A DNA stretch of 64,000 nt. Origin: Bacteroidaceae bacterium. Lineage in GTDB: Bacteria; Bacteroidota; Bacteroidia; Bacteroidales; Muribaculaceae. The translations under genes were made by a program, and so were the position numbers. Below, piece after piece: positions 8,296 through 34,450 of this stretch. The notes below the pieces were generated by a model that was not told where the DNA came from, ran no database searches, and saw only the letters and a program-made list of their open reading frames with translations. The stretch's first letter is position 1. Every line of letters starts with the position of its first letter. Location of the stretch: NCBI GenBank assembly GCA_963612465.1, contig CAVDUV010000006.1, forward strand, positions 36,732 to 100,731, given 5' to 3'.

Positions 8296-8383
8296 GGAGT
8301 GATGCTCGAGTGGTTGAAGAGGCACGCCTGGAAAGCGTGTATACGTCAAAAGCGTATCGGGGGTTCGAATCCCCCTCACTCCG
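8296..8383 (+). tRNA. tRNA-Ser (anticodon GGA)
   Basis: Hand-folded. Acceptor ggagtga/tcactcc. Anticodon stem cacgc/gcgtg with loop ctGGAaa. Long variable arm atacg..cgtat. T arm ggggg-ttcgaat-ccccc. No encoded CCA. Confidence 0.9.
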
Positions 8384-8389
8384 CTCAGG

Positions 8390-8425
8390 CGCGCTTGGCC
8401 TCGATAGGCTGAGCGCGTTTTTTTT
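8390..8425 (+). terminator. rho-independent terminator after tRNA-Ser
   Basis: Stem cgcgct...agcgcg with an inner gcct/aggc pair, followed by T8. Confidence 0.75.
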
Positions 8426-8468
8426 ATTGTGTGAAAACATGGTGGGCGGCACAGTGGGGCGCGCAGAT

Positions 8469-8516
8469 GAAACAAAAACAAAACGGGAGGAAATCCATTC
8501 GGACTTTCTCCCGTTT
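8469..8516 (-). terminator. rho-independent terminator after the tRNA-Asn pair
   Basis: Stem aaacgggag / ctcccgttt. On the minus strand it is followed by a T-rich run (ttttgtttttgttt). Confidence 0.7.
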
Positions 8517-8517
8517 G

Positions 8518-8591
8518 CGCTTCAAGATGGACTTGAACCAACGACCCCATGATTAACAGTCATGTGCTCTAACCAACTGAGCTATTGAAGC
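8518..8591 (-). tRNA. tRNA-Asn (anticodon GTT), copy 1
   Basis: Reverse complement gcttcaatagctcagttggttagagcacatgactGTTaatcatggggtcgttggttcaagtccatcttgaagcg. Acceptor gcttcaa/ttgaagc. Anticodon loop ctGTTaa. One T-T mismatch in the T stem. Confidence 0.85.
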
Positions 8592-8623
8592 AGGTTGATA
8601 TTTGTTTTGTCTTATTATTCTTG

Positions 8624-8697
8624 CGCTTCAAGATGGACTTGAACCAACGACCCCATGATTAACAGTCATGTGCTCTAACCAACTGAGCTATTGAAGC
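8624..8697 (-). tRNA. tRNA-Asn (anticodon GTT), copy 2
   Basis: Identical 74-nt sequence, 32 nt upstream of copy 1. Confidence 0.85.
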
Positions 8698-14236: not shown

Positions 14237-17200
14237 ATGCGTAAATTTACACTTATGCTTTTATGCGCCTTTATGGCGGTATTAGCATGCTCTGCTACGC
14301 AGTCACGCGACGAGTTCACCTTCACCAAGGTGCCCGTGGCAAGTGGCGTTGCGGCAGAGACAGCGACGCGCATCAGTGCCACCCAGCTGGCAAGCGGCAG
14401 TGTCTACACTGACGGCAGCCTCAGCTCTAAGGCACGTGTCGTGTCGGCTGCGCGTAAATCGCCGAAGGCCAAGGTCGCAATCGACGACTTTGCCGGCTCT
14501 CGCTACGTGATTTCCCATGCCACAACAGGTGTGGTCACGGCGCGTGAGGCCACAGTGACAAAGGTTGGCACCGACAGCCTTTCGATCAGCGGTTTCGTGT
14601 ACAGCGATGTAACTGTGGGCGCAAAAGTGGATGTGGCTACCGGCAAGGTGACCATTTATCCGCAATATGTGGCCACGGTGCAAGGTTATTCAGTATGGAT
14701 TTGTAGTGTGGATCAAGACAAGAACGTCTACAGCACTACCGACCCCATTGAAGGAACAATTGATGAAAGCGGCGCTCTGCATCTGGAGACCGCTTTCGGT
14801 TTTTTTGTGACTTCGGGTGACAGAAAAGGCGCCTATCTCACTATAGGCATTCAGAACTATGCCGATGTGGCAAAAGTCAACGGCCGCGTCACCACACAGG
14901 TCATCAAATATGATGGTTACTTTTCGACCAAGCGCCGCTCAGTCACTCCAGTCACCGACTGGGTGTATGTGCGCCAGACAGCAGCCGACAAGCTGCGCAT
15001 AACCCACTTGTCGAGCGACAAGGGCTACTTCGACTTCGATGCCAAGCTCAACTACGACAAGACCCTCAGCATCGACCCGCAGACTCTGCTCTCTATAGCA
15101 TATTCGGGCTCGTTCTGCTGCTACAAGTTTACCGAGACAGTGCAAGACACCACCGTTACAATCTCAGCTCAAATTCTGAGTCCCATTACCGGAACACTCA
15201 CACAAGACGGCGACTCGGCCAAGATTGCGCTGGGCAAGTGGATGGTGGGCAGCACCTCTGGCGGTGTGCTCAACCTGTTTGAGAGCAGTGCCTTCAGCAC
15301 TTCGGCCTCAATCGTGTTCCCCGAGAAGCCTCAAGCCAACTTCGAGGGCTCGGGTACTGAAGCCGACCCCTATCTGATTAAGACTGCGGCCGACCTCAAG
15401 GCCCTCTCTGTGACAGTCAATACCGACGCCTCTAAGCGCGGAAGCATCAAGACTGATGTTCAAGGCAATCAGTACTATCCGGTATATGCCGGCACCTACT
15501 TTGCTCTTGCCGCCGATATCGACATGGGCAGCTTCAAGGAGACCTTCGACCCCATTGGCACATCGGTAATCCGCTTTGCCGGTACGCTTGACGGTCGCGG
15601 CCATACAATCAAGAAACTCCAGTTTATCGACTACGCTTACGACTATGTGGGTCTCTTCGGAGCCACCGCACCCGAGGCTACCGTCAAGAACCTGCGCTTC
15701 AGCCAGCCCAAAATCACAACAGTGGGCTACAACGTAGGTGTGCTTGCCGGCCGTAACTTCGGTACTGTCGACGGTGTTACTGTCGACACCGCAACTGTAA
15801 GCACCAGCGGCTACAACGTGGGTCTTATCGGCGGTTACAACTTCGGTACAATATCTAATGTAAAAGTTCACAAAGCCTCTATTGCAGCCCTTGGCTACGT
15901 GGGTGGCGTGGCTGGATTCTGCTACGGCAACGTGCTGTCGTCGAGTGTTGAGGGTGCTACCATCCAACTCCTCTACAAGCAGCAGTTTGTCGGCGGTATT
16001 GTGGGCTACATTAGCCGTATCAAGGGCCAAGCCAACAGCAAGCTGCTCGATTGCTCGTTCTCAGGAACCATCTATTCGTCGGCTTCTGAGATTTGCATGG
16101 GTGGTATTGCAGGTGAGGCAGCCTACACCGAGATTGCCCGTTGCTACACTGCCGGACGCATACTCAGCGGTTCAAGCGTGCAAAACTACATAGCCGGCCT
16201 TGTGGGTGCAGCATGGGTGTGCGACATCCACGACTGCTACGCAACCGGTGTGGTCTACAACGAGAACAGCGCATATGCAGCCGGTCTCGTCAGCGAAGAC
16301 CCTGAAACCAGCGATGAATACGGCGGCACCACCATCACCAACTGCTATGCAGCCGTGCAGCTCACCACCGCTTCTACCGACTCTATTGCCGGCCTCGTGG
16401 GTAAGCCTAAATACATCACTGTAAAGAACAGCTACTTCGATGCCCAGCTGGCCAACATCAACCACTCTGAATGGGGCAAGAGCACTGCCGAGCTCACTTC
16501 GGCAGCCGGCATCTCGGGCTTCGACGCCAGCGTTTGGAATTTCACCGAGGGCCTGTATCCCCGCATCAAGGCAACCGACACAACCGATGTGGCTGTGGTT
16601 TCGGCTTCGCCCATTATCTTGGCTTCGGCCGACAACGTGAAACTCGTGAAGAGCGACTTCACTTACAACTCTGCGGCTAGCAACGTCAAGTGGCGTGCCG
16701 TGCAAAATGGCTCTTACAGCACCGAGGGCGGACACGCCTTTACGTTCAACAACGGCGTGGGTAAGCTCAACTATCAGCAGTATACCGATACCGTTGAGGT
16801 TTCGTGCAACAATGCATTCAAGCTCTACTTCGTCAATATAGCTCCGATGCCATTCAAGGGCGACGGCTCGGCCGAGAACCCATGGGAAATCGGCACACGC
16901 GAGGAGCTGAATCAACTGATCAGCATCTCTAACAATGCTACGCTCACGTTCAACGGCAAGTATATCAAGCAAACCGCCAACATCGACATGCAGGGCGACA
17001 CTATCCAGCCTATCGACAACGACAACAGCGGCAAGCTCCACTTCCTGGGAACCTACGACGGTCAGAAATACACCATCGACAACTTCGTGCTGAGCACAGC
17101 TGGCTTCCATGCCGAGGGCAACTCTTCGGGCAAGCCGGCAGGTGAGTTCAATCCGCGCGACGACCGCAGCACATACTATGGCGGTCTGTTTGGCACAGTG

Positions 17201-20200
17201 GGTGCCACTGGCGTGGTTAAGAATGTGACAGTGGGCAGCAAAGCCGTTTATCAACTCTTCTGCTACGGCGGCGCTATTGCCGGTCAGTGCTATGGCCGCA
17301 TTGAGGGCTGCTCTAACTTCGGTACTGTATACACCTACTATTCTCGCTCTGGCGGTATCGTAGGTCAGCTCAACAAGGACGGCGTGGTCAGCGGCTGCTA
17401 CAATGCTGGTAGCGTCTATGTAGACAACAACCAGGCTGGCGGTATTGCCGGCTATGCAGCTCAAGCAACCATCGAAAACTGCCAGAACGCAGGTGAGGTG
17501 GGTGCCGTATACTTCAACTCTTACCAAAAGGAAGGCGTGCAGGCTAAGGCCGGCGGTATCGTTGGTGAAGATTCGAAGTGTGTGATCAAGAATGTGCTCA
17601 ACACCGGTCATGTGGAAACCTACAAGCAGGTGGGCGGTATCAGTGGTGTCACTTCAAGCTCTACATTCACCAATGCAGTGAACTATGGTACTGTGGTTGT
17701 GAAGACCGACAAGTCTACTTCAGGCCACATCGCAGGTGCCAACACAAGCTCTACATTCGAGAATTCATATTATGCAAGCCAGCTGTCGAAACTGGGTGCC
17801 GTGGCTAACGGCAACCACGACGGTGTTGAGGGTGAGACCACAACAAATCTCGCCTCGGGCAGCATCAAGACTCTCTCCGACTCGATATGGACACAGAAGG
17901 CAGGCTGTTATCCCACTCTTGCCGCCACCAGCAATTGGCCTGAGGCTCAACTTGCATCAAAGGCAACTGTGTTCTTCGCCGATGGCAACTATGCAAGCTC
18001 TGTCTTGACTCCCGCCACTCTGGGTAACACCCAAGAGCTGACTTGGTCGGTTAAGACCGGAAAGGCATTCGCTGTTACCGACGGCAAACTTGTGCCCACA
18101 GTGCCCGCATCGGGCGCCGAAGCCGACACTCTGGTTGCTGTCTTTGGCAACTACAAGCGTTACTTGCCCATCGTCACACTCAATGCAGCAATCCTCGAAG
18201 GCAGCGGCACAGCCGAGGCTCCTTACCTCATCAAGACTGTGGCTGACTACAACACTCTGGCCGACTTCGTGAAGTCGACCGGACACGACTACGAGGGCAG
18301 CTACTTCAAGGTGGTCAACGACCTCGATTTCAAGGATGTTGCATTCCAGCCTATTGCCGACGGTCCTAACGGATTTGCAGCCGACTTCAACGGCAACGGC
18401 AAGACGTTCAGCAACATCAGCTACGACACAAGCACCGACAACGGAACTACGGCTCATGCCGTGTTTGGTACCGTGCTTGCCGCAGGTTCTGTGCACGACC
18501 TTACCATCGACGAGTCTTGCAAGTTCGGTTCTTACACCTATCCTGCAGCATTCGTATCGTCGCTTTACGGTAAGCTCTACAACCTCACCAACAAGGCCGC
18601 TGTGGCCGCAGGCAACTACTATGCCGGCGGTATTGCCAGCTTGGCCAATGCTGGTGCGTCAATCAAGAATTGCGCCAACTATGGCGACATCACAGCTAAG
18701 TATGGCTATGCCGGTGGTATCTTCGCCGTCAGCGTTGCCGGCTCTGCTATCCAGGTCGACAGCTGCGTCAACGAGGGCTTAATCTCGTCGGCAAGCTATA
18801 TGGGCGGTATCGCCGCACAGGCATCGGCCAATGTGAATGCAAGCGTCAACCGTGGCGCAATCGCAGCTACTGCCAAATATGCAGGCGGTATGCTTGGTGT
18901 GGCTCTCGCTCCGTCGAGCGCAACCTACTGCCACAACGAGGCCGACATTCTCGCTGTTGAGGATGCTGGCGGTATCTTCGGTCAGGTGGCTGCACACAGC
19001 GCTCCCTACCGCTGCACTATCGACAGCTGCTACAACACTGGCGCAATCACTGCCGCCACAAGCTCTAAGAAAAAGTCGTACTACATGGGCGGTATCGTGG
19101 GCTACGCTACCCGCGGCATCACCGTCAACAAGTGCTACAACATTGGCGAGGTGAAGGCTGAGTCGAGCGACATCATCCTCTACACTGCCGGTGGCATTGT
19201 GGGTTCGAGCAGCGCAACCAGCGCAGGCTACAACTATTTCACCGACTGCTGGAATTCAGCCAACGTGAGTGCATATAACAACGTGGGCGGTATTGGCGGC
19301 GCAATCAGCGGCGACACCACCGCAATAATTGTGCGCTGCTACAACTTGGGCAATATCTCAAGCAACAGCCCCACAGTCTCTAACGCCGGCGGTATTGTGG
19401 GTAATGGCGGATATGAAATCAGCGACAGTTACAATGCAGGTAACGTGACCGGTACTGGCTATCAGATTGGCGGTATCGCAGGTTACCTCACTGGTCACCC
19501 CTACGACTTCCACAATGTGGCCAATTATGGCACGGTGACCGGTACCACTACCAAGTCGACTAAGATCGGCGGTATCGTTGGTATGGGTCGTGTGGACATG
19601 AAGGATTGCTACAACTTTGGCGAAGTGAGTGGCTACGACGCAGTGGCCGGTATCGTGGGTTATCCCGGCAATGCGCTTGCCGAAAGCTACTACACCTATA
19701 TCACCCGCACCTATAATGTAGGTAAGGTGACTGCCACCAATGGCGCAGCAGGAAACATCACCACACTCAACAGCAACTGTAAGTATTATTCTTGCGACTC
19801 GGTTTATTTCGACAGCAGTGTCAACGAGGCTGGTAGCTACGACACCCAAAACGGTGTCAAGGGTATCACCAAGCGTGAGTTTGTCGACCTGAAGATAAGC
19901 GATGCCTTCGAAAATGCCGAGGCCACCTATCCTTCGCTCAAGGTGTTCAAGAACAATGACTACAACAGCTTTGCAGTGGCAATGCTCCTGCTTGCCGACG
20001 GCGAGAAGACCGACAGCGTGACACACAACTTCAAGGTGGGTACTCCCGCAGGTGCTGTGTGGACAGCTTCATCTAACCTTGTGATTGATGGCAACGACGT
20101 GAAACTGGCCAACAAGACCAATGGCGAGAGCGCAACCATCACCCTCACTGTGGGCGACTTCAGCCGCACTTATGAGCTCACGCTCTACTATCCTTCTGGC

Positions 20201-20365
20201 ATCTCGAGCAACATAGCCGACAAGGCAGTTGCCAACCGCGTATACTACAACCTTGCCGGTGTGCGCGTTGATGGCCCGTCGGAATACAACCCGGTAGTGA
20301 TTGAGCGCACCGTCTACACCGACGGCACTTCGGCTTCGGCCAAGGTTATCTACCGAGCCAAGTGA
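14237..20365 (+). CDS. giant (2042 aa) GLUG-motif repeat surface protein with T9SS C-terminal sorting domain
   Basis: Signal peptide MRKFTLMLLCAFMAVLACSA. Three modules each open with GSG/GDG-x-AE-x-P(Y/W)(L/E)I (nt about 15347, 16859, 18200). Each is followed by many roughly 20-25 aa GG(I/L)(A/V)G...N(C/S)YN.G.V repeats. The C-terminus (VYYNLAGVRVDGP...KVIYRAK) is like Por_Secre_tail. Confidence 0.85.
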   Translation: MRKFTLMLLCAFMAVLACSATQSRDEFTFTKVPVASGVAAETATRISATQLASGSVYTDGSLSSKARVVSAARKSPKAKVAIDDFAGSRYVISHATTGVVTAREATVTKVGTDSLSISGFVYSDVTVGAKVDVATGKVTIYPQYVATVQGYSVWICSVDQDKNVYSTTDPIEGTIDESGALHLETAFGFFVTSGDRKGAYLTIGIQNYADVAKVNGRVTTQVIKYDGYFSTKRRSVTPVTDWVYVRQTAADKLRITHLSSDKGYFDFDAKLNYDKTLSIDPQTLLSIAYSGSFCCYKFTETVQDTTVTISAQILSPITGTLTQDGDSAKIALGKWMVGSTSGGVLNLFESSAFSTSASIVFPEKPQANFEGSGTEADPYLIKTAADLKALSVTVNTDASKRGSIKTDVQGNQYYPVYAGTYFALAADIDMGSFKETFDPIGTSVIRFAGTLDGRGHTIKKLQFIDYAYDYVGLFGATAPEATVKNLRFSQPKITTVGYNVGVLAGRNFGTVDGVTVDTATVSTSGYNVGLIGGYNFGTISNVKVHKASIAALGYVGGVAGFCYGNVLSSSVEGATIQLLYKQQFVGGIVGYISRIKGQANSKLLDCSFSGTIYSSASEICMGGIAGEAAYTEIARCYTAGRILSGSSVQNYIAGLVGAAWVCDIHDCYATGVVYNENSAYAAGLVSEDPETSDEYGGTTITNCYAAVQLTTASTDSIAGLVGKPKYITVKNSYFDAQLANINHSEWGKSTAELTSAAGISGFDASVWNFTEGLYPRIKATDTTDVAVVSASPIILASADNVKLVKSDFTYNSAASNVKWRAVQNGSYSTEGGHAFTFNNGVGKLNYQQYTDTVEVSCNNAFKLYFVNIAPMPFKGDGSAENPWEIGTREELNQLISISNNATLTFNGKYIKQTANIDMQGDTIQPIDNDNSGKLHFLGTYDGQKYTIDNFVLSTAGFHAEGNSSGKPAGEFNPRDDRSTYYGGLFGTVGATGVVKNVTVGSKAVYQLFCYGGAIAGQCYGRIEGCSNFGTVYTYYSRSGGIVGQLNKDGVVSGCYNAGSVYVDNNQAGGIAGYAAQATIENCQNAGEVGAVYFNSYQKEGVQAKAGGIVGEDSKCVIKNVLNTGHVETYKQVGGISGVTSSSTFTNAVNYGTVVVKTDKSTSGHIAGANTSSTFENSYYASQLSKLGAVANGNHDGVEGETTTNLASGSIKTLSDSIWTQKAGCYPTLAATSNWPEAQLASKATVFFADGNYASSVLTPATLGNTQELTWSVKTGKAFAVTDGKLVPTVPASGAEADTLVAVFGNYKRYLPIVTLNAAILEGSGTAEAPYLIKTVADYNTLADFVKSTGHDYEGSYFKVVNDLDFKDVAFQPIADGPNGFAADFNGNGKTFSNISYDTSTDNGTTAHAVFGTVLAAGSVHDLTIDESCKFGSYTYPAAFVSSLYGKLYNLTNKAAVAAGNYYAGGIASLANAGASIKNCANYGDITAKYGYAGGIFAVSVAGSAIQVDSCVNEGLISSASYMGGIAAQASANVNASVNRGAIAATAKYAGGMLGVALAPSSATYCHNEADILAVEDAGGIFGQVAAHSAPYRCTIDSCYNTGAITAATSSKKKSYYMGGIVGYATRGITVNKCYNIGEVKAESSDIILYTAGGIVGSSSATSAGYNYFTDCWNSANVSAYNNVGGIGGAISGDTTAIIVRCYNLGNISSNSPTVSNAGGIVGNGGYEISDSYNAGNVTGTGYQIGGIAGYLTGHPYDFHNVANYGTVTGTTTKSTKIGGIVGMGRVDMKDCYNFGEVSGYDAVAGIVGYPGNALAESYYTYITRTYNVGKVTATNGAAGNITTLNSNCKYYSCDSVYFDSSVNEAGSYDTQNGVKGITKREFVDLKISDAFENAEATYPSLKVFKNNDYNSFAVAMLLLADGEKTDSVTHNFKVGTPAGAVWTASSNLVIDGNDVKLANKTNGESATITLTVGDFSRTYELTLYYPSGISSNIADKAVANRVYYNLAGVRVDGPSEYNPVVIERTVYTDGTSASAKVIYRAK

Positions 20366-20599: not shown

Positions 20600-20911
20600 A
20601 TGCCGATTGGCAGTGAATCCGTTACTTTTACAGGCCGCACCACTCGCTCGGAGTATTGGTGGTTTTATCTTGCCTGCATAATTATCAGCTTTGCCATTGG
20701 TCTTGTCGACGGACTTTTTGGGGAAAAGAGTATTGTGTCGAATATTGTGTCGCTGGGTCTCTGCATCCCAATGCTTGCTGTGGGCATCAGGCGGATGCAC
20801 GACACGGGCCACTGTGGCTGGTTTATCCTAATCCCCATCTACAATTTGGTGCTCCTTTGCACCAAGGGAGAGTCGCAAGCCAATGAGTATGGCGATGTGT
20901 CTGCCAAGTAA
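20600..20911 (+). CDS. DUF805 family inner-membrane protein
   Basis: FTGRTTRSEYWWFYL ... GIRRMHDTGHCGWFILIPIYNLVLL is characteristic of DUF805 (YhaH/YhaI-like). Confidence 0.75.
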   Translation: MPIGSESVTFTGRTTRSEYWWFYLACIIISFAIGLVDGLFGEKSIVSNIVSLGLCIPMLAVGIRRMHDTGHCGWFILIPIYNLVLLCTKGESQANEYGDVSAK

Positions 20912-20937
20912 GGCTCAAGGGCTGAACGTATAAAATT

Positions 20938-20974
20938 AAAGGCTGGCCGTGCGCGGATGCGCGGGCCAGCCTTT
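20938..20974. terminator. GC-rich hairpin (bidirectional terminator), left copy
   Basis: aaaggctggcc-gtgcgcggatgcgcg-ggccagccttt. Lies 27 nt after the DUF805 stop. Confidence 0.7.
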
Positions 20975-20996
20975 ACTGTGGGGTTGTGGTAACGGG

Positions 20997-21062
20997 TTAG
21001 TGGTCGTAGTGGGCGAGGGCGCGGCGCAGGTTGTCGGCCAGCTGCACGCGCATCTCTTTGGG
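20997..21062 (-). pseudogene. orphan 3' fragment (last 21 codons plus stop) of the WYL-regulator gene
   Basis: The reverse complement reads PKEMRVQLADNLRRALAHYDH-TAA. The intact gene ends PKEMRVQLADNLRRALALYDH-TGA at 26228. No upstream coding continuation. Confidence 0.85.
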
Positions 21063-21502
21063 GGATCGTGAAGTGACATGCGGCTACGTAATCGCTATTG
21101 CACTGGTACAACATTTTTGTTGTGTGTGACAAGGATAAATGTAAAAATATAGTTATATTTGCCGTGCACTTATATTCGAAAGGATAGAGGTGCTACATAT
21201 TAATACGGACGTTACTTAAGCGTTACCTCTACATTCAAAACTCGCAATTTTGTAAAAAACTTCGGAGGTGAAGTCGTAGCAGCGTCCACGTTTTGCGCAT
21301 ATGTCGCCAGCCCATACTTTCCGCTATGGAAGGTATGGGTCTTGGTGCTTGCATATTGGGCGTGGGCTGACTGGGTTACTTATTCTGAAGTTTGGGCATG
21401 CGAGGCCTTGAATGTGGAATAAGACAAGTACAGATTCCTACGCCCTTTTTGTGTTATGTTCAGCTATGGGGAATTCAGTTGGACGCCATAAAAACGTATG
21501 CT

Positions 21503-21730
21503 ATGATATTCATAGGCCCTATTATAAAGGCCGAGCTAGATCGCCAGGAGCGCAGCGTCAGTTGGTTTGCTCGCAAGATAGGTTGTGATCGCTCCACAGT
21601 GTATCGCATATTTCAAAGAGCCAGCATCGATACACAGTTGTTGATGCGCATCTCTACCGTACTTGACCATGACTTCTTTGCTGATATATCGCAGAGCATA
21701 CACCATGTACCATATTCAGATTCTCGCTGA
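21503..21730 (+). CDS. small helix-turn-helix DNA-binding protein (75 aa)
   Basis: ORF 21392..21730. In-frame ATG at 21503. HTH-like SVSWFARKIGCDRSTVYRIFQRASIDTQLL. Confidence 0.6.
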   Translation: MIFIGPIIKAELDRQERSVSWFARKIGCDRSTVYRIFQRASIDTQLLMRISTVLDHDFFADISQSIHHVPYSDSR

Positions 21731-21764
21731 TTGCGGCACAAGTGTGGCAATTGTGCAGCACAGA

Positions 21765-21799
21765 TTTCTTTTACGTAACTGCTATTGCCAATATCTTTG
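21765..21799 (+). promoter_or_regulatory. candidate Bacteroides-type promoter for the peptide/radical SAM operon
   Basis: TATCTTTG (21792-21799) fits the -7 consensus TAnnTTTG. A T-rich tttctttt lies at about -33. Motif match only. Confidence 0.3.
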
Positions 21800-21860
21800 C
21801 GTTGTTAAAGAAAAATCCGAATCGCTTGAAAGGACGTAGGAAGTAAACTTTAACAAAAAT

Positions 21861-21897
21861 GAGAAAGCCGAAATGCAAGAAAGAGAGTAGGCAAAAA
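21861..21897 (+). repeat. 37-bp perfect direct repeat, copy A (leader upstream of the 23-aa ORF)
   Basis: gagaaagccgaaatgcaagaaagagagtaggcaaaaa is identical to 22000..22036. Ends 18 nt before the ATG at 21916. Confidence 0.95.
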
Positions 21898-21915
21898 AAT
21901 TAATACTAAGATGAA

Positions 21916-21987
21916 ATGATAGTAGGAATTGGATCAATGCTGGGGATTATGTTGATTGGATATTTAGCCTTTAAAATTTTCCATTGA
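21916..21987 (+). CDS. 23-aa hydrophobic peptide MIVGIGSMLGIMLIGYLAFKIFH (putative small membrane peptide)
   Basis: Hand-translated; below the length shown in the ORF track. Sits at the same spacing from the 37-bp repeat as the 49-aa ORF. No Cys. Confidence 0.35.
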   Translation: MIVGIGSMLGIMLIGYLAFKIFH

Positions 21988-21999
21988 CAAACCAATACA

Positions 22000-22036
22000 G
22001 AGAAAGCCGAAATGCAAGAAAGAGAGTAGGCAAAAA
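22000..22036 (+). repeat. 37-bp perfect direct repeat, copy B (leader upstream of the 49-aa ORF)
   Basis: Identical to 21861..21897. Ends 18 nt before the ATG at 22055. Confidence 0.95.
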
Positions 22037-22054
22037 TTTTTAATTAGAACCAAA

Positions 22055-22204
22055 ATGAAAAAGTATCAGAAACCCAAAGTCGTGGCAAAAAATCTTCCGT
22101 CTGGTTCATATGCAGCTGGTTGTCCAGCGAACCGTTCCGGAGAGACTTGTTTTATGTTCAATGTGCAAGGACCCACATGCAAATATTGTGAACGCTCGAA
22201 ATAA
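22055..22204 (+). CDS. 49-aa Cys-containing putative RiPP precursor MKKYQKPKVVAKNLPSGSYAAGCPANRSGETCFMFNVQGPTCKYCERSK
   Basis: Hand-translated; below the length shown in the ORF track. Lys-rich leader-like N-terminus, 4 Cys in the C-terminal 27 aa. Lies immediately upstream of two RRE-rSAM-SPASM genes. Confidence 0.6.
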   Translation: MKKYQKPKVVAKNLPSGSYAAGCPANRSGETCFMFNVQGPTCKYCERSK

Positions 22205-22222
22205 AGGCAACGAAATTATTTT

Positions 22223-22258
22223 AATTCAAGGGGAGGATTCCCCTTGAATTTTATTCTT
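22223..22258 (+). terminator. 12-bp perfect hairpin plus T-rich tail between peptide gene and radical SAM genes (possible attenuator)
   Basis: aattcaagggga-ggat-tccccttgaatt followed by ttattctt. Lies 19 nt after the peptide stop and 9 nt before the rSAM start. Confidence 0.6.
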
Positions 22259-22266
22259 ATCATGTG

Positions 22267-23736
22267 ATGTATATTCAGCTATCAAAAAATTCCTTTATAA
22301 GGTGTACCCCAAATTATGGGTATATTACAAATCAATTAACTAGGCAAGATAGGGTATATAACGAATCTGGAGCAAGTTTTCTTAAAAAAATAGCACGTAA
22401 GCCGTTGAAGCTGGAAAATATAGTGGGGCAACTTTGTGATGAATATCCAGATGAACTCAAAGAAACCATTGAAAAAGACTTTGTCTCTTTTATAGAAGAT
22501 TTGGCAAATCATGGATTTGTAATACTGGGGGATAGTATTGATGACCTTGCAAAAAAAGAACAGGAATTTTCTTATTCAATAGACGCTCCGTTCACAATGA
22601 CGGAAGACTTTACACAGCAGACCCAAGAAAGGGTTAGCGAAAACACACAAGATTTTTTCCTCGAGGAAGTGCAAAAACGTCCAATGATTTCTGCATTGCA
22701 GTTTGAGCTGTCAAGTAGGTGTAATGAGAGGTGTATACATTGTTACATACCGAACGACAAGAAAAATAAAGGATTTGACATGCCTACGCAAGAAGTGAAA
22801 AGAGTGCTGGATGAATTTTCAGATATGGGTGGACTTTATGTTACATTGTCTGGTGGAGAAGCCTTTTTACACAATGATATCCTTGAAATAATTGAGTATT
22901 GTAGAAAGAAGGATTTTAGGGTTACAATATTGTCCAATTTAATTTCTGTAAAAGAAGAACATGTACAGGCATTGAAAAAGATGAATGTCTCTCTCATCCA
23001 GACCTCCCTATATTCTATGAATCCAGAAATCCATGATTATATAACTACTGTTAAGGGATCGTTTGAGAGAACTAAGTCGTCTATAGAAAAATTGGTGAAA
23101 TCCGATATTCCAGTCCAGATAAGTTGTCCTGTTATGAAAGCCAATAAAGATAGTATTCGCGATGTTTTACTATATGCCAGGTCTTTAAAGATAAAGGCTC
23201 AAACCGATTATATTATGATGGCACGCTCAGATCTGGATACATCTAATTTGGCTAATAGATTGTCCTTGGAAGAGACAGAGAAAGTAATCCAAGACATACT
23301 ACAATTTGATGCTGATTACATTGACAATACGCTTATGCAGAAACCTCTTTCTGATGAAGTGAAATTTAACATGGACAGATTTAAGTCTCAACCAGTTTGC
23401 GGTGTGGGCTATGATAATTGCTGTATAACTGCAAATGGAGACGTTTATCCGTGTGCAGGATGGCAGGACTATGTGATAGGTAATGTGTATCGTCAGCCCC
23501 TAAAGGAAATTTGGGAAGGTAGTAAAAAAGTGCAGGCACTACGTAAAATCACTCAAGCATCCTTTCCTTCATGTCTTAATTGTGAAGCACTTAACTATTG
23601 TAATCGATGCCTTGTTAGAAATTACAACGAAACGAATGGAAATATGTTTGAAATCCCAAAACGTTTTTGTGACATAGCTTTCTTGAACAAAAAGCTGACA
23701 GAAAAATTTGAACACGATTATATATACAAAAAATAG
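22267..23736 (+). CDS. radical SAM/SPASM peptide-modifying enzyme with N-terminal PqqD-like (RRE) domain, paralog 1
   Basis: CNERCIHCY (CxxxCxxC), SGGEAFL. C-terminal Cys cluster CGVGYDNCCITANGDVYPCAGW ... CLNCEALNYCNRC. N-terminal roughly 90 aa resemble PqqD. GTG at 22264 is an alternative start. Confidence 0.85.
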   Translation: MYIQLSKNSFIRCTPNYGYITNQLTRQDRVYNESGASFLKKIARKPLKLENIVGQLCDEYPDELKETIEKDFVSFIEDLANHGFVILGDSIDDLAKKEQEFSYSIDAPFTMTEDFTQQTQERVSENTQDFFLEEVQKRPMISALQFELSSRCNERCIHCYIPNDKKNKGFDMPTQEVKRVLDEFSDMGGLYVTLSGGEAFLHNDILEIIEYCRKKDFRVTILSNLISVKEEHVQALKKMNVSLIQTSLYSMNPEIHDYITTVKGSFERTKSSIEKLVKSDIPVQISCPVMKANKDSIRDVLLYARSLKIKAQTDYIMMARSDLDTSNLANRLSLEETEKVIQDILQFDADYIDNTLMQKPLSDEVKFNMDRFKSQPVCGVGYDNCCITANGDVYPCAGWQDYVIGNVYRQPLKEIWEGSKKVQALRKITQASFPSCLNCEALNYCNRCLVRNYNETNGNMFEIPKRFCDIAFLNKKLTEKFEHDYIYKK

Positions 23737-23742
23737 TTCCGC

Positions 23743-25083
23743 GTGTTTGTTAAAAGATTAGACTCGACAATAGTGAGAGCACTGAAAGATGGTTCTGCTC
23801 TTGCGTTTAATGTTGAAACGGGTGAACATATCGTCTTAGATGAAGTAGGAGGTGCTTTTATTAGTAAGGTGTTGACCAAAGCGCAGGATGTGGATAATAT
23901 ATGTTTATCGCTTATGTCAATGTACTATGGTGTCTCGCTATCTGAATTAAGGACTGATTTTATTGGATTTATTACGGAATTAGGGGACAAGGGAATTTTA
24001 AAGATTTCGGAAAAACCTGAGAATGAGCATGAACTTACTGATATACAGATAGAAATTATAACTGGTTGCAATGAGCGCTGCGTGCACTGTTACATACCAA
24101 ATGCGGAAAAAAACAAGTGTGTGTTGATGCCTAACAAAATGGTGCACTCAATTATTGACCAATTCAAAGTGTTAGGCGGCAAGAGCATAACATTGTCAGG
24201 AGGAGAACCGCTACTTCATCCAGACTTGTGCGATATGATAAATTATTGTGCATTAAACAATTTGCGAATTAACATTTTCACAAACCTAACTCTACTTGAC
24301 GATAAAATAACATCGGCATTATTAGACTCGAATATTGGCGTAGTTCAAACTTCACTATATTCAATGAATCCAAATGTGCATGATGATATAACAAAAGTCC
24401 CAGGTTCATTTGCAAAGACTTTGCATGGAATAGAGAAATTAAAAGAAAATGGGATTGAAGTGCAAATTGCGTGTCCAGTGATGAGTAAAAATAAGGAAGG
24501 TCTAAGTGAATTGGTCGATTTTGCTGTTGGCAATGGCATTAATTTAAGGCTAAACTCTCAGTTAATGGCTCAAAATAATGGCGATGATACTTTTGTCAAA
24601 GGCAATAGGCTCTCATTGATACAAAACAAGGAACTATTATGTGAATTGATGACCAATCATGCAGAATATGTAATACACCATTTATTTGAGTTGTCTGATT
24701 TGGATGCAGCATTGATTGATAACCCCAAAAAAACCTGTGAAAGTTCGATTTGTTCTGCAGGGAAAAATTCATGCAGCATATTGGTAAATGGCAATGTAAT
24801 TCCTTGCCCAAGTTGGGTGGAATGTGTGTTGGGGAATGTTTTTGTCTCATCATTAAGTGATATTTGGAATGGAAGTGCTCTCTTAAAGCATTTACGCCAT
24901 TTCAATAAACAAAAGTTTTATCCCGAATGTTTAGAGTGCAAGGCTTTATCGTTTTGCAAAAGATGTTTCGCTCAGAATGCATCCGGGAATAGTAAATGTT
25001 TCCTTGATATTGATGGGAGAGTGTGTGACGAGGCTTTTTTAAGGAAGGAGTTTTTTGATCGATACGCAAATGGAAATGGCTGA
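23743..25083 (+). CDS. radical SAM/SPASM peptide-modifying enzyme with N-terminal PqqD-like (RRE) domain, paralog 2
   Basis: GTG start 6 nt after the paralog 1 stop. CNERCVHCY, SGGEPLL. SPASM-like CSAGKNSCSILVNGNVIPCPSW ... CLECKALSFCKRC. Clearly homologous to paralog 1 along its length. Confidence 0.85.
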   Translation: MFVKRLDSTIVRALKDGSALAFNVETGEHIVLDEVGGAFISKVLTKAQDVDNICLSLMSMYYGVSLSELRTDFIGFITELGDKGILKISEKPENEHELTDIQIEIITGCNERCVHCYIPNAEKNKCVLMPNKMVHSIIDQFKVLGGKSITLSGGEPLLHPDLCDMINYCALNNLRINIFTNLTLLDDKITSALLDSNIGVVQTSLYSMNPNVHDDITKVPGSFAKTLHGIEKLKENGIEVQIACPVMSKNKEGLSELVDFAVGNGINLRLNSQLMAQNNGDDTFVKGNRLSLIQNKELLCELMTNHAEYVIHHLFELSDLDAALIDNPKKTCESSICSAGKNSCSILVNGNVIPCPSWVECVLGNVFVSSLSDIWNGSALLKHLRHFNKQKFYPECLECKALSFCKRCFAQNASGNSKCFLDIDGRVCDEAFLRKEFFDRYANGNG

Positions 25084-25396
25084 TGAATATGTTTCAATGA
25101 TAGTAGCAGGATCTTTTACTGTTTTAGGGGCTATGGTTAGCTCAATATCACATTGGTTAACGTCACGAAACAGTACAAGAACGCATAAGTTGGAAAAATA
25201 TGTCATGCAATTAGGAGATCAAGTTAAATCTTATTGGTACTTGGAGCGGTTATATGCTCACGAGCTATCTGAATTAAAAAAATGTAACGAGGAAACAACA
25301 TTGAAAAGGAACCGAGCTAAAATAGCAGATCAAGTGGGTGTTCGGCCCAAAATGACAGCTAATGATGTAGATAAACTTTTGGATGATATTCGGTGA
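25070..25396 (+). CDS. small protein with one N-terminal TM helix and charged helical tail
   Basis: ORF 25055..25396. ATGs at 25070 and 25076 overlap the rSAM-2 stop. Helix MIVAGSFTVLGAMVSSISHWL. No family recognised. Confidence 0.55.
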   Translation: MEMADEYVSMIVAGSFTVLGAMVSSISHWLTSRNSTRTHKLEKYVMQLGDQVKSYWYLERLYAHELSELKKCNEETTLKRNRAKIADQVGVRPKMTANDVDKLLDDIR

Positions 25397-26148
25397 TGAT
25401 TGTTGATAGCCACGTACATGTAGGACAATTCAATGATAAATATTTTTCCCCTGCGTTTGTATCAAGGCTGATGTCAAGCGTAGGGGTTGACTATTATGCA
25501 GTGTCGTCTACCACAATGTGTAATGAGGATTACCCAAAGGTGTTGTCTGAAATAAATGAATTGATTGGTCTTGATGGTGAACGAGTGTTGCCTGTTATTT
25601 GGATTACGCCATATGGACTTAAGGGTAGCATTGCATGGTTTCTTGAGTCGGATGTTAGGTGGCGCTGCTTGAAGGTTCATCCATTTCTACACCCCAATGA
25701 CTGGGAACCGAATGGCTCACAGTTTTGCGACGTGATAGACATTGCTCGTGAACTGCATGTGCCATTGTTAATACACACAGGGCATGATAAAAGTTGCATG
25801 TGTGGCAAATATGAGGAAATGATTGCTGAAAATGTTGATGTTGATTTCATCTTGGCTCATGGTCAACCATTGAAGCAGGTGATACCTATATTAGCTCGTT
25901 ATATGAATGCTTATGCAGATTCTGCTTTTATGCCTATTGGGCAAATGAGAGAGATCATTGACAATGACTTAGCACATAAACTTTTGTGGGGGACAGATAT
26001 GTGTGTGCCGTTACATTTTTATTCCCATATAGATCTTGCTCAGTGTTATGGCAAAAAACTGAAAGACTTTCGCGCGGTTTGCTCACAAGAGCAATATGTG
26101 TCAGTGACAAGTATTAATGCAAGAAAATTGTTTGGCATTTCATTGTGA
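25396..26148 (+). CDS. amidohydrolase-2 type metal-dependent TIM-barrel hydrolase
   Basis: N-terminal DSHVHV (HxH), LLIHTGH, ILAHG, WGTDMCVP. The ATG overlaps the previous stop (TGATG). Confidence 0.7.
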   Translation: MIVDSHVHVGQFNDKYFSPAFVSRLMSSVGVDYYAVSSTTMCNEDYPKVLSEINELIGLDGERVLPVIWITPYGLKGSIAWFLESDVRWRCLKVHPFLHPNDWEPNGSQFCDVIDIARELHVPLLIHTGHDKSCMCGKYEEMIAENVDVDFILAHGQPLKQVIPILARYMNAYADSAFMPIGQMREIIDNDLAHKLLWGTDMCVPLHFYSHIDLAQCYGKKLKDFRAVCSQEQYVSVTSINARKLFGISL

Positions 26149-26167
26149 TGGTTGAAGACATTAAAAA

Positions 26168-26293
26168 TAAAGGCTGGCCGTGCGCGGATGCGCGGGCCAG
26201 CCTTTATTGTGGGGTTGTGGTAACGGGTCAGTGGTCGTAGAGGGCGAGGGCGCGGCGCAGGTTGTCGGCCAGCTGCACGCGCATCTCTTTGGG
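26168..26293. repeat. 126-bp direct repeat, right copy (island boundary; part of the intact WYL gene 3' end)
   Basis: Matches 20937..21062 with 3 mismatches. Confidence 0.95.
26169..26205. terminator. GC-rich hairpin (bidirectional terminator), right copy
   Basis: Same hairpin as 20938..20974. Lies 20 nt after the amidohydrolase stop and 22 nt after the WYL gene stop. Confidence 0.7.
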
Positions 26294-27127
26294 CCGCAGC
26301 ACTTCTATTGAGGGGCCCAACGACAGCAGTTTCTGCATTAGGTCGTAGGTGAACCGCATGCGGTAGGTGAATATCGAGTAGGCATCGTGCAACTCTTCGC
26401 GCTGCGAGTGGTGCAGCGGCAGTCCGCGCAGATATTTGGCCTGTGTCACATTGGCTTTAATCACAATGTCCTTTGGCTCGCTTTGGTCGGTGCTGATGCC
26501 GAAGCAGTCGGCATAATACTCCCGCGGGCTGAAGCTTTCGGGCATCGTGAAACTGTGGTTGGTTATGACAAGGTGGCTCATGCGGTCGAGCGAGTAGGTC
26601 TTGATGCACTTGTCGGCCACGTTGAATCCTATCACATACCACCGTTGCTCGAAGATTTTAACAAAGTATGGCTCCACTTTCACGCCATAGTTCAAGTTCA
26701 CACGGCTATAGTTGTTGTAGCTGAAGGTGATGCGCTTGTTTTGCCGCATTGCCTCAATCACCACCGGCAGGTTGCCGCGGCTCGAGGGCACGTCTTCGAG
26801 CATAATGCGCGCCGACATGTCGTGTGAGTCGCTTAGCACGCCGCTTATCGACACCGAGTTGAGCAGCCACTCCTGGAACTGCAGGTTGCTTTCGCTGGTG
26901 TCAGGGTCGATATAGTATTCGTAGGTCGACGTGTCGCACATGATGTCGATGCTGAACGTGTCGGCAATGCCATGGCGGTAGTTATAGAACGTGCGTCTGG
27001 CCAGTGGCTCACCCTCGCTGATGTCGGCCTCGAGCCAGAGCCGGTTGAGCTCCTCGCGGGTGATGCGCTTGTAGCGCTTGATGGTGGTGATAATCCACAC
27101 ATATTTGTTGATCAGATTGCGTGCCAT
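26228..27127 (-). CDS. WYL domain-containing transcriptional regulator
   Basis: 299 aa. N-terminal wHTH-like region, central ...FEQRWYVIGFNVADKCIKTYSLDRM (WYL-type motif), C-terminal WCX-like domain. Confidence 0.75.
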   Translation of the reverse strand: MARNLINKYVWIITTIKRYKRITREELNRLWLEADISEGEPLARRTFYNYRHGIADTFSIDIMCDTSTYEYYIDPDTSESNLQFQEWLLNSVSISGVLSDSHDMSARIMLEDVPSSRGNLPVVIEAMRQNKRITFSYNNYSRVNLNYGVKVEPYFVKIFEQRWYVIGFNVADKCIKTYSLDRMSHLVITNHSFTMPESFSPREYYADCFGISTDQSEPKDIVIKANVTQAKYLRGLPLHHSQREELHDAYSIFTYRMRFTYDLMQKLLSLGPSIEVLRPKEMRVQLADNLRRALALYDH

Positions 27128-30193: not shown

Positions 30194-31444
30194 TTATTTC
30201 GAGAATTGCTTGATGCTTATTGTTTTACCCATAAACAGGATGGCGCCGCTATTGCACTCGCGGATTATGTAGATGAATGGGCTGTCGACAATGAAACAGT
30301 TAGGGGCGACAGCGGTGTAGTCATCGGTTGCTCCTGAGGCTACTTTAATTTGGGTTCCGTGTTCGTCCACATCGATGGATGCAGATTGCTTGACAACGCC
30401 CAAAGCCGATTTCGTTGTTGAGAATTTTCCGAAATCAGCATTTTGTGATAATGCTTGATTAATGCCCATGGCAGTAAGAATATGCTGAAGGTCGTAATTG
30501 AATTCTCCTTTGAATTTGGGAAGCCCTATTTTATATGGGCCATTGCCGGGGTTCTTGGCGGCATTGTCGAGCATGTAGTAGAAATCATCCAAAGTCATTT
30601 CGGTTATGTATTTGTTGATGTCAATGCTCCGGTTGGGCAACAGGATGTCCATCTCGAAGGAGCCTTTGTAAGGAATTTTAAGCAGGCTCACGAAGTCGCT
30701 GTCGGCGTAGTGCTCAAGCATAAGGTCTTGGAACATCATGGGCACTTTTTCGCTTATGTTCTTGTAGTTGTGGAAGATGTCATCGCAGGTGTTTTTTTCG
30801 TCAAACGGGTTTGCCCACCACCCATCAAAAGTTGTTGCGTTTACGACACAAAAGCCCGCATTTGCTGGAATTCCTTCAAAAAGAGATGGTATTTTGCCGC
30901 TAGTGGCATCGCTGACCCATTTGTTCACAATGCCAACGGCCTCGTTGCTGTAAAAATCTGCTCCCTTGAAACTTGTGCCATAATTGCTGGTGCAGTTCTT
31001 TACAAACTCGTCGAGAACGCTATAGCGGTTGTTGTATACGAAGAAGTTTGAAGTCGTGAATTTTGTGTTGGGCACGCATTTTGGCAGGTCTTCGCGCAGG
31101 TGTTTATAGTAACTGTTCACCTCATTGATGTCGTAGCTGATGCCAAGCGCTTTCACTATTTCGTTGTAAGTGTTGCCCTGTGCTCCGTTTGCCAGCATTG
31201 CCAGCACTTGTGCCATGCTGTAGGGCGAGATGAATGTGTTGTCATTCTCGTGCGCATTGTTGAGTGTCTTGAAGAGGTTGAAGGCAAAGTCGTTGGCTTC
31301 GGTAGTTATTTTTTGCTCGGTGGCCGATAGTTGTATCTTTTGATATCCGTTTTCTTGAGGCTCATCGCCTGTGTGATTGCAGGCAGTGGCTACTAGCAAT
31401 GTGGTTGCCGCAATAACGGTGTGCTTGAAATTAAAATGTCTCAT
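30194..31444 (-). CDS. serpin family lipoprotein, copy 1
   Basis: Lipobox LLVATAC. Serpin signatures FISPYSMAQVLAMLANGAQGNT and hinge/RCL region DEHGTQIKVASGATDDYTAVAPNCFIVDSPFIYIIRE. Aligns to the alpha-1-antitrypsin C-terminus by eye. Confidence 0.85.
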   Translation of the reverse strand: MRHFNFKHTVIAATTLLVATACNHTGDEPQENGYQKIQLSATEQKITTEANDFAFNLFKTLNNAHENDNTFISPYSMAQVLAMLANGAQGNTYNEIVKALGISYDINEVNSYYKHLREDLPKCVPNTKFTTSNFFVYNNRYSVLDEFVKNCTSNYGTSFKGADFYSNEAVGIVNKWVSDATSGKIPSLFEGIPANAGFCVVNATTFDGWWANPFDEKNTCDDIFHNYKNISEKVPMMFQDLMLEHYADSDFVSLLKIPYKGSFEMDILLPNRSIDINKYITEMTLDDFYYMLDNAAKNPGNGPYKIGLPKFKGEFNYDLQHILTAMGINQALSQNADFGKFSTTKSALGVVKQSASIDVDEHGTQIKVASGATDDYTAVAPNCFIVDSPFIYIIRECNSGAILFMGKTISIKQFSK

Positions 31445-31467
31445 AATCAGTTGATTTTAAAAGTTTG

Positions 31468-32919: not shown

Positions 32920-33098
32920 AATATTAATGTGCTGTTACGCTTGGTTTTTCTGCGACTATAATAAAATCGTGTGCGGCAAATATATTAATTGTTTGTCAAA
33001 CACCACCCCAAAAATGTAAAATATTTTAATACACATTGCATTTTTTAAAAAGTGTTTTAAAAAGCACACCCCTGCGTAGAGACAAAGTGCAAAGTCAC

Positions 33099-33138
33099 AA
33101 AAAAATTCATGCCAACGCTTTTACGGGTTGGCATGAAT
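33099..33138 (-). terminator. rho-independent terminator after serpin copy 2
   Basis: Same hairpin as copy 1, followed by T7 on the minus strand. Confidence 0.75.
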
Positions 33139-33176
33139 TACTTGTATGGCACTAATGTGCTATTGAAAAAGCGGTG

Positions 33177-34427: not shown

Positions 34428-34450
34428 AATCAGTTGATTTTAAAAGTTTG

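Follow-up and report, generated by a model that had tools for sequence, protein, structure and literature searches.

A low-GC gene cassette of gut and rumen Bacteroidales probably encodes maturation of a hypervariable cysteine-containing peptide

What is made by a gene block in which a short cysteine-containing peptide sits directly in front of two radical S-adenosylmethionine (SAM) enzymes and an amidohydrolase? The question is raised by a 64,000-nt stretch of a Bacteroidaceae bacterium contig (CAVDUV010000006.1; hereafter the window), where positions 21063-26167 hold, in order, a helix-turn-helix (HTH) protein, a 23-aa hydrophobic open reading frame (ORF), a 49-aa peptide with four cysteines, two paralogous enzymes (rSAM1 and rSAM2), a small protein with a single transmembrane (TM) helix and an amidohydrolase. 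A first-pass annotation had read these seven co-directional ORFs as a pathway for a RiPP (ribosomally synthesised, post-translationally modified peptide). All seven are present where it placed them, and their translations bear out the hydrophobic ORF, the four-cysteine peptide and the single-TM protein. As we argue below, the cassette is probably the RiPP maturation unit of a widespread and apparently uncharacterised family in gut and rumen Bacteroidales.

Both enzymes had been proposed to combine a PqqD-like RiPP recognition element (RRE), a radical SAM domain and a SPASM domain, and a Pfam search recovers all three in each, always above gathering scores. For rSAM1, the core maturase (22264-23736, plus strand; public gene calls start at ATG 22267, giving 489 aa), the E-values are 1.3e-7 for PqqD (PF05402), 2.4e-27 for Radical_SAM (PF04055) and 2.5e-13 for SPASM (PF13186); for the accessory paralogue rSAM2 (23743-25083, plus strand), which has the same three domains, they are 2.1e-5, 2e-24 and 4.6e-12. 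The PF05402 scores of 32.3 (rSAM1) and 25.2 bits (rSAM2) compare with a gathering score of 23.4. The two proteins are homologous, as had been claimed, at 31% identity. They share the radical SAM cluster motif CNERC(I/V)HCY (CNERCIHCY in rSAM1), and both translations contain the complete SPASM cysteine pattern CX9-10C...CX2CX5CX3C...C (CX9C in rSAM1), a set predicted to fit two auxiliary [4Fe-4S] clusters.

To which known family do these enzymes belong? In NCBIfam, none of the cassette genes scores above the cut-off of a model, and the peptide, the TM protein and the hydrolase draw no match there at all. Scores are 103/80 bits against 850 for AlbA, 87/85 against 625 for StsB, 71 against 300 for SkfB, 66/69 against 340 for PapB, 103/106 against 265 for MftC and 97 against 381 for PqqE. 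The closest PDB sequences are SkfB, PqqE, SuiB and CteB, with SkfB first for rSAM1 (E = 4e-14), and the best full-length matches to a structural model of rSAM1 are SuiB (Foldseek E = 5.5e-15), SkfB and CteB, the three RRE-bearing peptide maturases with solved structures. In this model the N-terminal 97 residues form strands followed by three helices, with a pLDDT of about 90. The anaerobic sulfatase maturase anSME, which lacks that N-terminal domain, and PqqE match only partially. An anSME identity was rejected: the RRE is present, anSME is not among the top NCBIfam matches and the structural match is partial.

Might the substrate be something other than a peptide? Prokaryotic viperin (pVip) models in PADLOC match both enzymes with E-values of 1e-18 to 1e-15, the neighbouring WYL/WCX regulator, matched by PADLOC's WYL models, is of a type common in defence islands, and the island looks horizontally acquired. 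One could thus imagine an anti-phage or conflict island in which viperin-like radical SAM enzymes act, under WYL control, on nucleotides or another non-peptide substrate. We regard this as highly improbable, the least likely of the explanations we considered. The pVip matches span only the generic radical SAM core (residues ~100-300), viperins possess no RRE and no SPASM domain, and the enzymes are invariably linked to the peptide; a viperin assignment, being inconsistent with these features, was rejected. Moreover, the WYL gene lies outside the repeats that bracket the island and is missing from every related locus beyond this species, PADLOC returns nothing for the peptide, TM protein, hydrolase or HTH protein, and no relatives, of the amidohydrolase in particular, were found in viral contigs.

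The peptide itself (MKKYQKPKVVAKNLPSGSYAAGCPANRSGETCFMFNVQGPTCKYCERSK; 22055-22204, plus strand) was recognised as a precursor from its orthologues and their pattern of conservation. Orthologues occur in more than 100 loci, and our comparison drew on 58 distinct locus peptides, a further 72 that the protein database supplied, and 185 clusters formed at 50% identity. Across the family, precursors are 38-70 aa long. Positions M1, K6, A11-K12-N13 and G17-S-Y-A-A-G-C23 are invariant and P24, A25, C42, C45 and E46 nearly so, giving an N-terminal consensus M.KY.K...AKN..GSYAAGC and a C-terminal CxxC(E/D)xxx followed by the stop codon. Between C23 and the CxxC motif lies a variable loop of 7-24 residues, longer in distant members, which in about half of the peptides contains a fourth cysteine. 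In 56/56 locus peptides with a CxxC motif the chain ends exactly 4 residues past the last cysteine. The window precursor is conserved up to GSYAAGCP (C23), has an extra cysteine (C32) in its loop and ends in CKYCERSK. Precursors match no Pfam or NCBIfam model and are labelled in the database only as 'hypothetical protein'; that of the window is missing from the protein database searched, and so has apparently never been called as a gene. That the ORF is truly coding follows from a comparison of the related loci L001 and L033, whose 24-codon leaders differ at ~10 synonymous and 0 non-synonymous positions.

Two superficial resemblances of the peptide were rejected. A sulfatase-like C-x-A-x-R motif (CPANR) in the window peptide is absent from orthologues and therefore coincidental, and the segment preceding a lipobox-like AAG|C is charged or polar, with no hydrophobic signal peptide. 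The GSYAAGCP part of the precursor profile was also matched 9-13 times each in two large proteins, P0413 (1972 aa) and P0441 (1512 aa), possibly a low-complexity resemblance.

Which genes belong to the system can be judged from its relatives. A database search at E <= 1e-10 gives more than 2,400 relatives of rSAM1. Cluster representatives with 65-68% identity to it number more than 100, and one of these was seen on 191 contigs; the names attached to the relatives are purely generic ('PqqD family peptide modification chaperone', for instance). When one genome was scanned for each species, 12 further loci turned up, with maturases 63-66% identical, nearly all in metagenome-assembled genomes (MAGs) of Bacteroidales from gut and rumen. 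The commonest version (P0074-type) lies between rplQ and gyrB, where an HTH gene is joined by a 44-aa peptide with an additional truncated copy of 32 aa, one maturase and the amidohydrolase. An 88%-identical relative has a window-like two-maturase layout in a third chromosomal context. In all genome loci found with rSAM1 as the seed, both peptide and amidohydrolase are present. As an independent test, we scanned metagenomes using only the amidohydrolase as seed. Wherever 1.7 kb or more of upstream sequence was available, the locus has a maturase on the same strand (58/58), and wherever it was 2.3 kb or more, the locus has a family peptide (51/51). The conserved core is therefore the peptide, one RRE-radical SAM-SPASM maturase and the Amidohydro_2 protein.

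This survey modifies some of the initial claims and strengthens others. The amidohydrolase and the TM protein had both been called unusual partners; the former turns out to be an invariant core component and the latter a lineage-specific accessory. The paired maturases had been likened to those of thuricin CD, and the pair is indeed present in the window, but the analogy is loose, since the commonest relatives carry a single maturase. Finally, the RiPP reading of a cysteine peptide beside such enzymes was to fall if the enzymes lacked RRE or SPASM domains, if homologous enzymes elsewhere never had an adjacent cysteine peptide, or if they matched a characterised non-RiPP family. We find instead that both domains are present, that homologous enzymes essentially always lie beside a homologous peptide and that no NCBIfam model comes near its cut-off.

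Two observations on individual relatives may be added. The 32-aa second precursor of the commonest version (MRKYSKPQVVAKNLLTGSYTAGCPIIGSNNLE; L001-L004, L036-L038 and L045, for example L001 6538-6636) looks like a decaying duplicate because it has neither the CxxC end nor the RNA element that precedes most precursor genes. Furthermore, a few carriers bear Firmicute labels: the L005/L007 contig CAVKDU010000016.1 is labelled Wujia chipingensis and L015 'Clostridia bacterium'. Both neighbours (e.g. DUF4294) and cassette look Bacteroidales in these cases, which probably reflect mis-binning or mislabelling rather than transfer across phyla.

Why should one segment of the peptide vary when so much of it is fixed? 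L001 is 98-100% identical at the nucleotide level to L038 and L033 across the HTH, maturase and hydrolase genes, whereas identity drops to 48-57% in the loop-coding stretch of 60-120 nt. To judge by these alignments, this divergence is allele replacement or strong diversifying selection aimed at the core of the peptide.

Such targeted variability also bears on a different reading of the product, as a peptide-derived redox cofactor or other small molecule in which Tyr19/Cys23 are cross-linked with the CxxCE motif and the result is excised by the amidohydrolase for use inside the cell. The pairing of an RRE-radical SAM-SPASM enzyme with its own metal hydrolase recalls MftC/MftE and PqqE/PqqB-F, and models for MftC and PqqE are among the NCBIfam matches. 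The core enzymes are all cytoplasmic with no conserved exporter, and the N-terminal Tyr/Cys and C-terminal Cys/Glu are invariant when the spacer is not. Nonetheless, we think a cofactor very unlikely. The MftC (103-106 versus 265) and PqqE (97 versus 381) scores are far below cut-off, and the spacer's hypervariability is targeted, between near-identical strains, rather than neutral drift. Several loci encode two different precursors, and accessory maturases track extra cysteines inside the supposed spacer. In addition, the cassette is sporadic, occupying varied chromosomal sites as a low-GC island, and has no linked cofactor-dependent oxidoreductase.

The last link between enzymes and loop deserves elaboration. 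Second maturases were found in 13 distinct peptide contexts, and at least four cysteines are present in 13/13 peptide sets with two maturases, against 16/40 with one (Fisher p = 8e-5, with no correction for phylogeny). These second maturases fall into at least 6 types, with identities between types below 38%; all keep CNERCxHCY, and one type is without an RRE. The type found in the window co-occurs with a loop motif of cysteine followed by three hydrophobic residues (CFMF, CLMF, CLIF or CVLL). In our reading, the core maturase was duplicated repeatedly, and the resulting second maturases would add a cross-link at the extra cysteine. An apparent truncation of rSAM2 in sister MAGs was dismissed as a gene-calling effect (a GTG start and a run of Ns), as tblastn recovers the full gene at 99-100% identity.

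The remaining core component, the amidohydrolase (25393-26148, plus strand), had been assigned to the amidohydrolase-2 family, and the assignment stands (Amidohydro_2, PF04909, E = 4.6e-9, 36.9 bits against a gathering score of 26.4). Its AlphaFold2 model (pLDDT 96.5) is a TIM barrel of the amidohydrolase superfamily whose fold neighbours at TM-scores of ~0.7 are 3cjp (an uncharacterised Clostridium protein), LigY, LigJ and ACMSD, with LigI also found, all at 12-16% identity; a search of PDB sequences gave no meaningful match. The family is small (265 matches) and uniform in length, and the window protein has no signal peptide. Residues D5, H7, H9, K94, H96, H128, H156 and D202 are invariant, with the HxH motif at 7-9, and because the expected metal ligands H7, H9, H128, H156 and D202 are among them the protein should be a functional metalloenzyme, as predicted from sequence, although the fold leaves its reaction undisclosed.

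Taken together, these observations suggest how the RiPP maturation unit might operate. The rSAM1 RRE would bind the conserved leader, the SAM cluster would take a hydrogen atom from the peptide and, with the two auxiliary clusters, the enzyme would install at least one cross-link involving the three invariant cysteines. Thioethers of the sacti- or ranthi-type would make a macrocycle of the variable loop, to which rSAM2 may add another cross-link where the loop has its additional cysteine (the C-FMF motif). The amidohydrolase would carry out a required hydrolysis, most simply removal of the leader, and the mature peptide would then display its loop in strain-specific antagonism or signalling. 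The individual steps differ in how probable we think they are. The enzymes most likely cross-link the peptide at its invariant cysteines. Sactipeptide or ranthipeptide chemistry is a plausible guess, and thioethers, the likeliest kind of link, are perhaps an even bet. That the hydrolase is the leader peptidase we hold as a tentative suggestion, with the balance of our expectation on the other side; it is a guess because Amidohydro_2 relatives of known function are not peptidases.

Several points count against this scheme, in whole or in part. Those same hydrolase relatives are decarboxylases, hydratases, lactonases and C-C hydrolases. The top-scoring NCBIfam models for the maturases, AhbD (141 bits) and NirJ2 (130 bits), far below cut-offs of 500, represent heme-pathway enzymes and not peptide maturases, and the rSAM1 structural model is of only moderate confidence overall (pLDDT 75). 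Thioethers may be expected simply because they are what this enzyme class most often produces on Cys-rich substrates; cross-links of C-C or C-O type, epimerisation or a reaction at the invariant tyrosine would be equally compatible with the sequences. Lastly, no conserved peptidase, ABC exporter or other transporter accompanies the three core proteins, which are cytoplasmic, so that secretion from a diderm cell is left unexplained.

What, then, would the mature peptide do? The neighbours of related loci offer one lead. A membrane Ser/Thr kinase whose C-terminal domain is extracytoplasmic lies beside the cassette in 15 related loci (in L008, 656-2771, the Pkinase match has E = 2.4e-26) and, adjacent to the kinase, a 207-aa putative regulator in 12; examples are L008 656-2771, L097 1401-3460, L101 572-2309, L017 3324-5138 and L018 1500-3505. 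The two may form a sensing module. Imagine that the peptide were a strain-specific pheromone and not a toxin, sensed by this kinase and regulator, or by the HTH protein of the window, and feeding back on its own expression. The divergence of kinases and regulators, at 25-40% identity, would be in keeping with such a role, and the allele-like swap of cores between near-identical strains resembles pherotype diversification. The lack of any conserved immunity gene or exporter among the neighbours of related loci would also fit. However, kinase and regulator are both missing from the window and from the commonest version, the kinases match each other through a generic domain, and their association with the cassette could be synteny within one clade. 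The small hydrophobic ORFs that follow the same upstream element also look more like immunity or toxin-handling peptides. We judge a pheromone to be a minority possibility, and a signalling role to be a live variant of the RiPP explanation.

A further feature unites these loci upstream of the precursor gene. A 44-nt repeat is found upstream of each small ORF in the window, and it resembles the DUF805b RNA motif of Rfam (RF02914, clan CL00115), an orphan cis-regulatory motif with the same consensus, AGGA-GAAGCCGAAAA-TCCT...AAAGAGUAGGCA. We built a model (R1) from an alignment of 45 peptide upstream regions, and in the entire window it finds exactly three copies, all on the plus strand and all inside the island. 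Copy 1 (21793-21842; R1 30 bits, E = 0.002), a TCC...GGA variant, is followed by no ORF, while its counterpart in L005 precedes a 24-aa hydrophobic ORF. Copy 2 (21844-21903; R1 54 bits, E = 3e-8; RF02914 27.6 bits) has its core at 21858-21893, ending 22 nt before the ATG of the 23-aa ORF, and copy 3 (21983-22042; RF02914 22.5 bits; R1 57 bits, having been part of the R1 training alignment) has its core at 21997-22032, ending 22 nt before the precursor ATG. Scores of 27.6 and 22.5 bits fall below the RF02914 gathering score of 35.6 bits. At the homologous site, however, 13/18 related loci carry elements above it (37-50 bits), often in two or three copies, so that those of the window are best seen as a divergent DUF805b variant.

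Elements of this type occur in 53/57 distinct peptide upstream regions, ending 20-27 nt before the ATG (sites in other loci include L099 2490-2524, L018 5210-5515 and L078 4822-4856). They also precede the 23-aa hydrophobic ORF of the window, with the same spacing of 22-23 nt, as well as hydrophobic ORFs in relatives, L070 among them, and ORFs of 66-68 aa (L076, L078). RF02914 was named for DUF805 genes, whereas here it stands before RiPP precursor genes and small hydrophobic ORFs; the DUF805 gene of the window (20600-20911) has no element upstream.

Is the element read as RNA? Beyond the Rfam hairpin, a 3-bp helix between a loop GCC and a downstream GGC, missing from the Rfam consensus structure line, is paired in 135/135 cells of the unfiltered alignment of the 45 regions. 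All 3 long-range pairs show compensatory changes, with 4 G-U and 0 A-C cells. Hairpin and long-range helix combined imply a predicted H-type pseudoknot. Set against a role as RNA, the 3-bp helix is thermodynamically weak by itself (-3.4 kcal/mol), and a co-evolving palindromic DNA operator would yield similarly symmetric changes. The balance of 4 G-U against 0 A-C cells weakly favours RNA over an operator, and the element probably needs a partner.

A second structure lies on the other side of the precursor gene: a terminator scan finds a 12-bp hairpin with a U-rich tail at 22223-22250 (plus strand; -17.6 kcal/mol, z = -3.05), between the precursor gene and rSAM1. It is likely an intrinsic terminator or attenuator, and its placement fits an excess of precursor transcript with read-through into the enzyme genes. 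In the mechanism we favour, this hairpin and the 5' element would jointly provide that excess. One can go further and suppose both that the core trio constitutes a new RiPP class with new chemistry, in which the TIM-barrel enzyme may perform an unprecedented step after cross-linking (hydration, decarboxylation or C-S/C-C hydrolysis) on the GSYAAGC/CxxCE scaffold, and, separately, that DUF805b is a pseudoknot riboregulator dedicated to peptide genes. We consider the conjunction of the two rather unlikely.

The remaining genes of the cassette are accessory. That an HTH gene comes first in the block holds up, though only through weak matches to HTH_26/HTH_3/HTH_28 (Cro/C1-type, E ~1e-3, below Pfam gathering scores). 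The ORF spans 21392-21730 on the plus strand; the likely start is ATG 21497, giving 77 aa, because homologues align from there, and the product is small, Xre/Cro-like and probably a regulator. Orthologues 68-88% identical occupy the equivalent position in L001-L007, L033, L036-38 and L045. The 23-aa ORF (MIVGIGSMLGIMLIGYLAFKIFH; 21916-21987, plus strand) would form a single helix and is a candidate membrane, immunity or export peptide; it is kept in L024, with 2 conservative changes, and in L005, at 22 aa. The TM protein (25055-25396, plus strand; public calls start at 25070, giving 108 aa) has a single TM helix at its N-terminus, with the Kyte-Doolittle maximum (1.85) on residue 8, and a helical tail that is charged. 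It matches neither Pfam nor NCBIfam, and is limited to the window's own lineage, with the same architecture in the same slot of L005 and L017/L035. The tight spacing noted initially is there: rSAM1 and rSAM2 are 6 nt apart, and the TM gene overlaps both of its neighbours, rSAM2 and the amidohydrolase gene.

Across related loci, the slot between maturase and hydrolase is variable. Other recurring neighbours are a bacterial PH-domain protein (11 loci) and a 63-aa two-helix hydrophobic protein (8 loci). We also observed two small ORF families with no Pfam match, one of 73-91 aa between precursor and maturase (L001 6745-7020 and 17 other loci) and one of 66-68 aa (L076 1362-1562, L078 4876-5082, L060 3532-3735).

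How did the cassette come to lie where it does? The block had been described as AT-rich, and a composition scan of the window agrees, with a GC content of 35-41% inside against 51-58% in the flanks. A 132-nt direct repeat, with one copy at 20931-21062 and the other at 26162-26293, encloses this 5.1-kb low-GC island almost exactly; the copies are 97% identical with sharp borders, and the repeat occurs twice in the 64 kb and 0 times in shuffles. The right copy combines a terminator hairpin, strong at -33.5 kcal/mol, with the genuine 3' end of a convergent neighbour outside the cassette, the WYL/WCX gene (26228-27127, minus strand); the left copy is the duplicated hairpin with a degenerate version of the last ~66 nt of that gene, in which tblastn detects the WYL C-terminal fragment. 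The island is thus set in the duplicated end of a gene, as an integrated element would be. Both the WYL and the DUF805 gene were considered as parts of the system and rejected, as neither falls between the repeats and neither is found in relatives from other species.

The cassette had further been called mobile-looking. Flanking repeats, low GC and the different chromosomal contexts occupied by relatives agree with that description; no integrase, transposase or other recombinase lies inside the bracketed cassettes of the window, L001 or L005. Nor did exact look-ups of the DUF805 and WYL proteins reveal an empty site: contigs that are long enough carry the island and the others break at the repeat. 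Mobility is therefore not demonstrated. Direct repeats flank the cassette in three contexts, namely the window, L001 (4898-5014 / 9412-9528; 117 nt, 87% identical) and L005 (2775-2803 / 8114-8142; a weak 29-nt repeat, 83% identical).

Elsewhere in the window, a gene pair encoding a serpin (416 aa) and a peptidase C10 (483 aa), annotated from matching MAG contigs, is tandemly duplicated at 30194-35902 (minus strand), ~4 kb right of the island. Directly left of the DUF805 gene, 14237-20365 encodes a 2042-aa protein with GGIxG-type repeats and faint Glug hits. Three tRNA genes lie at 8296-8697, two of them equal-scoring 74-nt tandem copies on the minus strand (8518-8591, 8624-8697).

Why does a cassette of this kind matter? 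A 2023 mining study states that identifying and characterising Bacteroidales class I bacteriocins 'remains elusive' (PMC10352776), and experimentally characterised RiPPs from this dominant gut order are scarce. The cassette is common and, with three core genes, compact. It offers a new enzyme pairing to characterise, radical SAM-SPASM with Amidohydro_2, and a natural library of loops on a fixed three-cysteine scaffold, and the contrast in cores between near-identical strains is the signature of a molecule of strain-level competition or recognition. It also supplies a concrete genetic context for the orphan DUF805b motif; if the riboregulator reading were true, a structured RNA would be tied to peptides that are hypervariable and discriminate between strains, in Bacteroidales that are dominant in gut and rumen.

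How does the family compare with systems already described? An RRE-radical SAM-SPASM maturase beside a cysteine peptide is a well-known kind of locus, one that automated miners would probably flag generically. In the part of the literature covered, we found no paper, curated model or annotation for the precursor family, the obligate Amidohydro_2 partner or the link to DUF805b. Ranthipeptides or SCIFF peptides (CteA-CteB, Tte1186; PapA-PapB for freyrasin) likewise pair a small Cys-rich precursor with a single RRE-radical SAM-SPASM maturase in compact clusters that, as here, often have no protease or transporter, and CteB is among the best structural matches to rSAM1. Yet the PapB model scores only 66-69 bits against 340, and the precursor matches no NCBIfam or Pfam model. 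In place of a Cys-rich conserved C-terminus or CxxxD repeats it has three invariant cysteines, C...CxxC(E/D), around a hypervariable loop. The amidohydrolase is obligate, and the hosts are Bacteroidales rather than Firmicutes.

Sactipeptide pathways (TrnC/TrnD of thuricin CD, AlbA of subtilosin, SkfB) also use RRE-radical SAM maturases, with SPASM or Twitch domains, on cysteine peptides, and the window resembles thuricin CD in having two paralogous maturases. Thuricin CD, however, has two precursors and two integral maturases, whereas here there is one precursor and an optional second maturase of at least six types; AlbA, StsB and SkfB models fall far below cut-off, and the cysteine positions break the hairpin pattern of N-terminal donors and C-terminal acceptors. 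Streptide and related RaS-RiPPs (StrB/SuiB) share the three-domain layout, SuiB being the best full-length structural match, and a short macrocycle would be expected in both cases, but identity is only 15-16% and the Lys-Trp C-C bond on a conserved core has no corresponding motif in our peptides. Mycofactocin (MftA/B/C/E) and PQQ (PqqA/D/E) likewise combine a peptide, an RRE, a radical SAM-SPASM enzyme and a dedicated hydrolase with no exporter, and their precursors have a conserved C-terminal motif. Here, by comparison, the RRE is fused to the enzyme, the precursor is unrelated and hypervariable, the models score below cut-off, and the hydrolase is an Amidohydro_2 TIM barrel rather than a creatininase-family or metallo-beta-lactamase (MBL) protein. 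For an enzyme of the amidohydrolase superfamily at work in a RiPP pathway there is precedent in BotAH/PurAH, which cleave the follower peptide of bottromycin; they belong to another branch of the superfamily, and the bottromycin pathway is based on YcaO, not on radical SAM.

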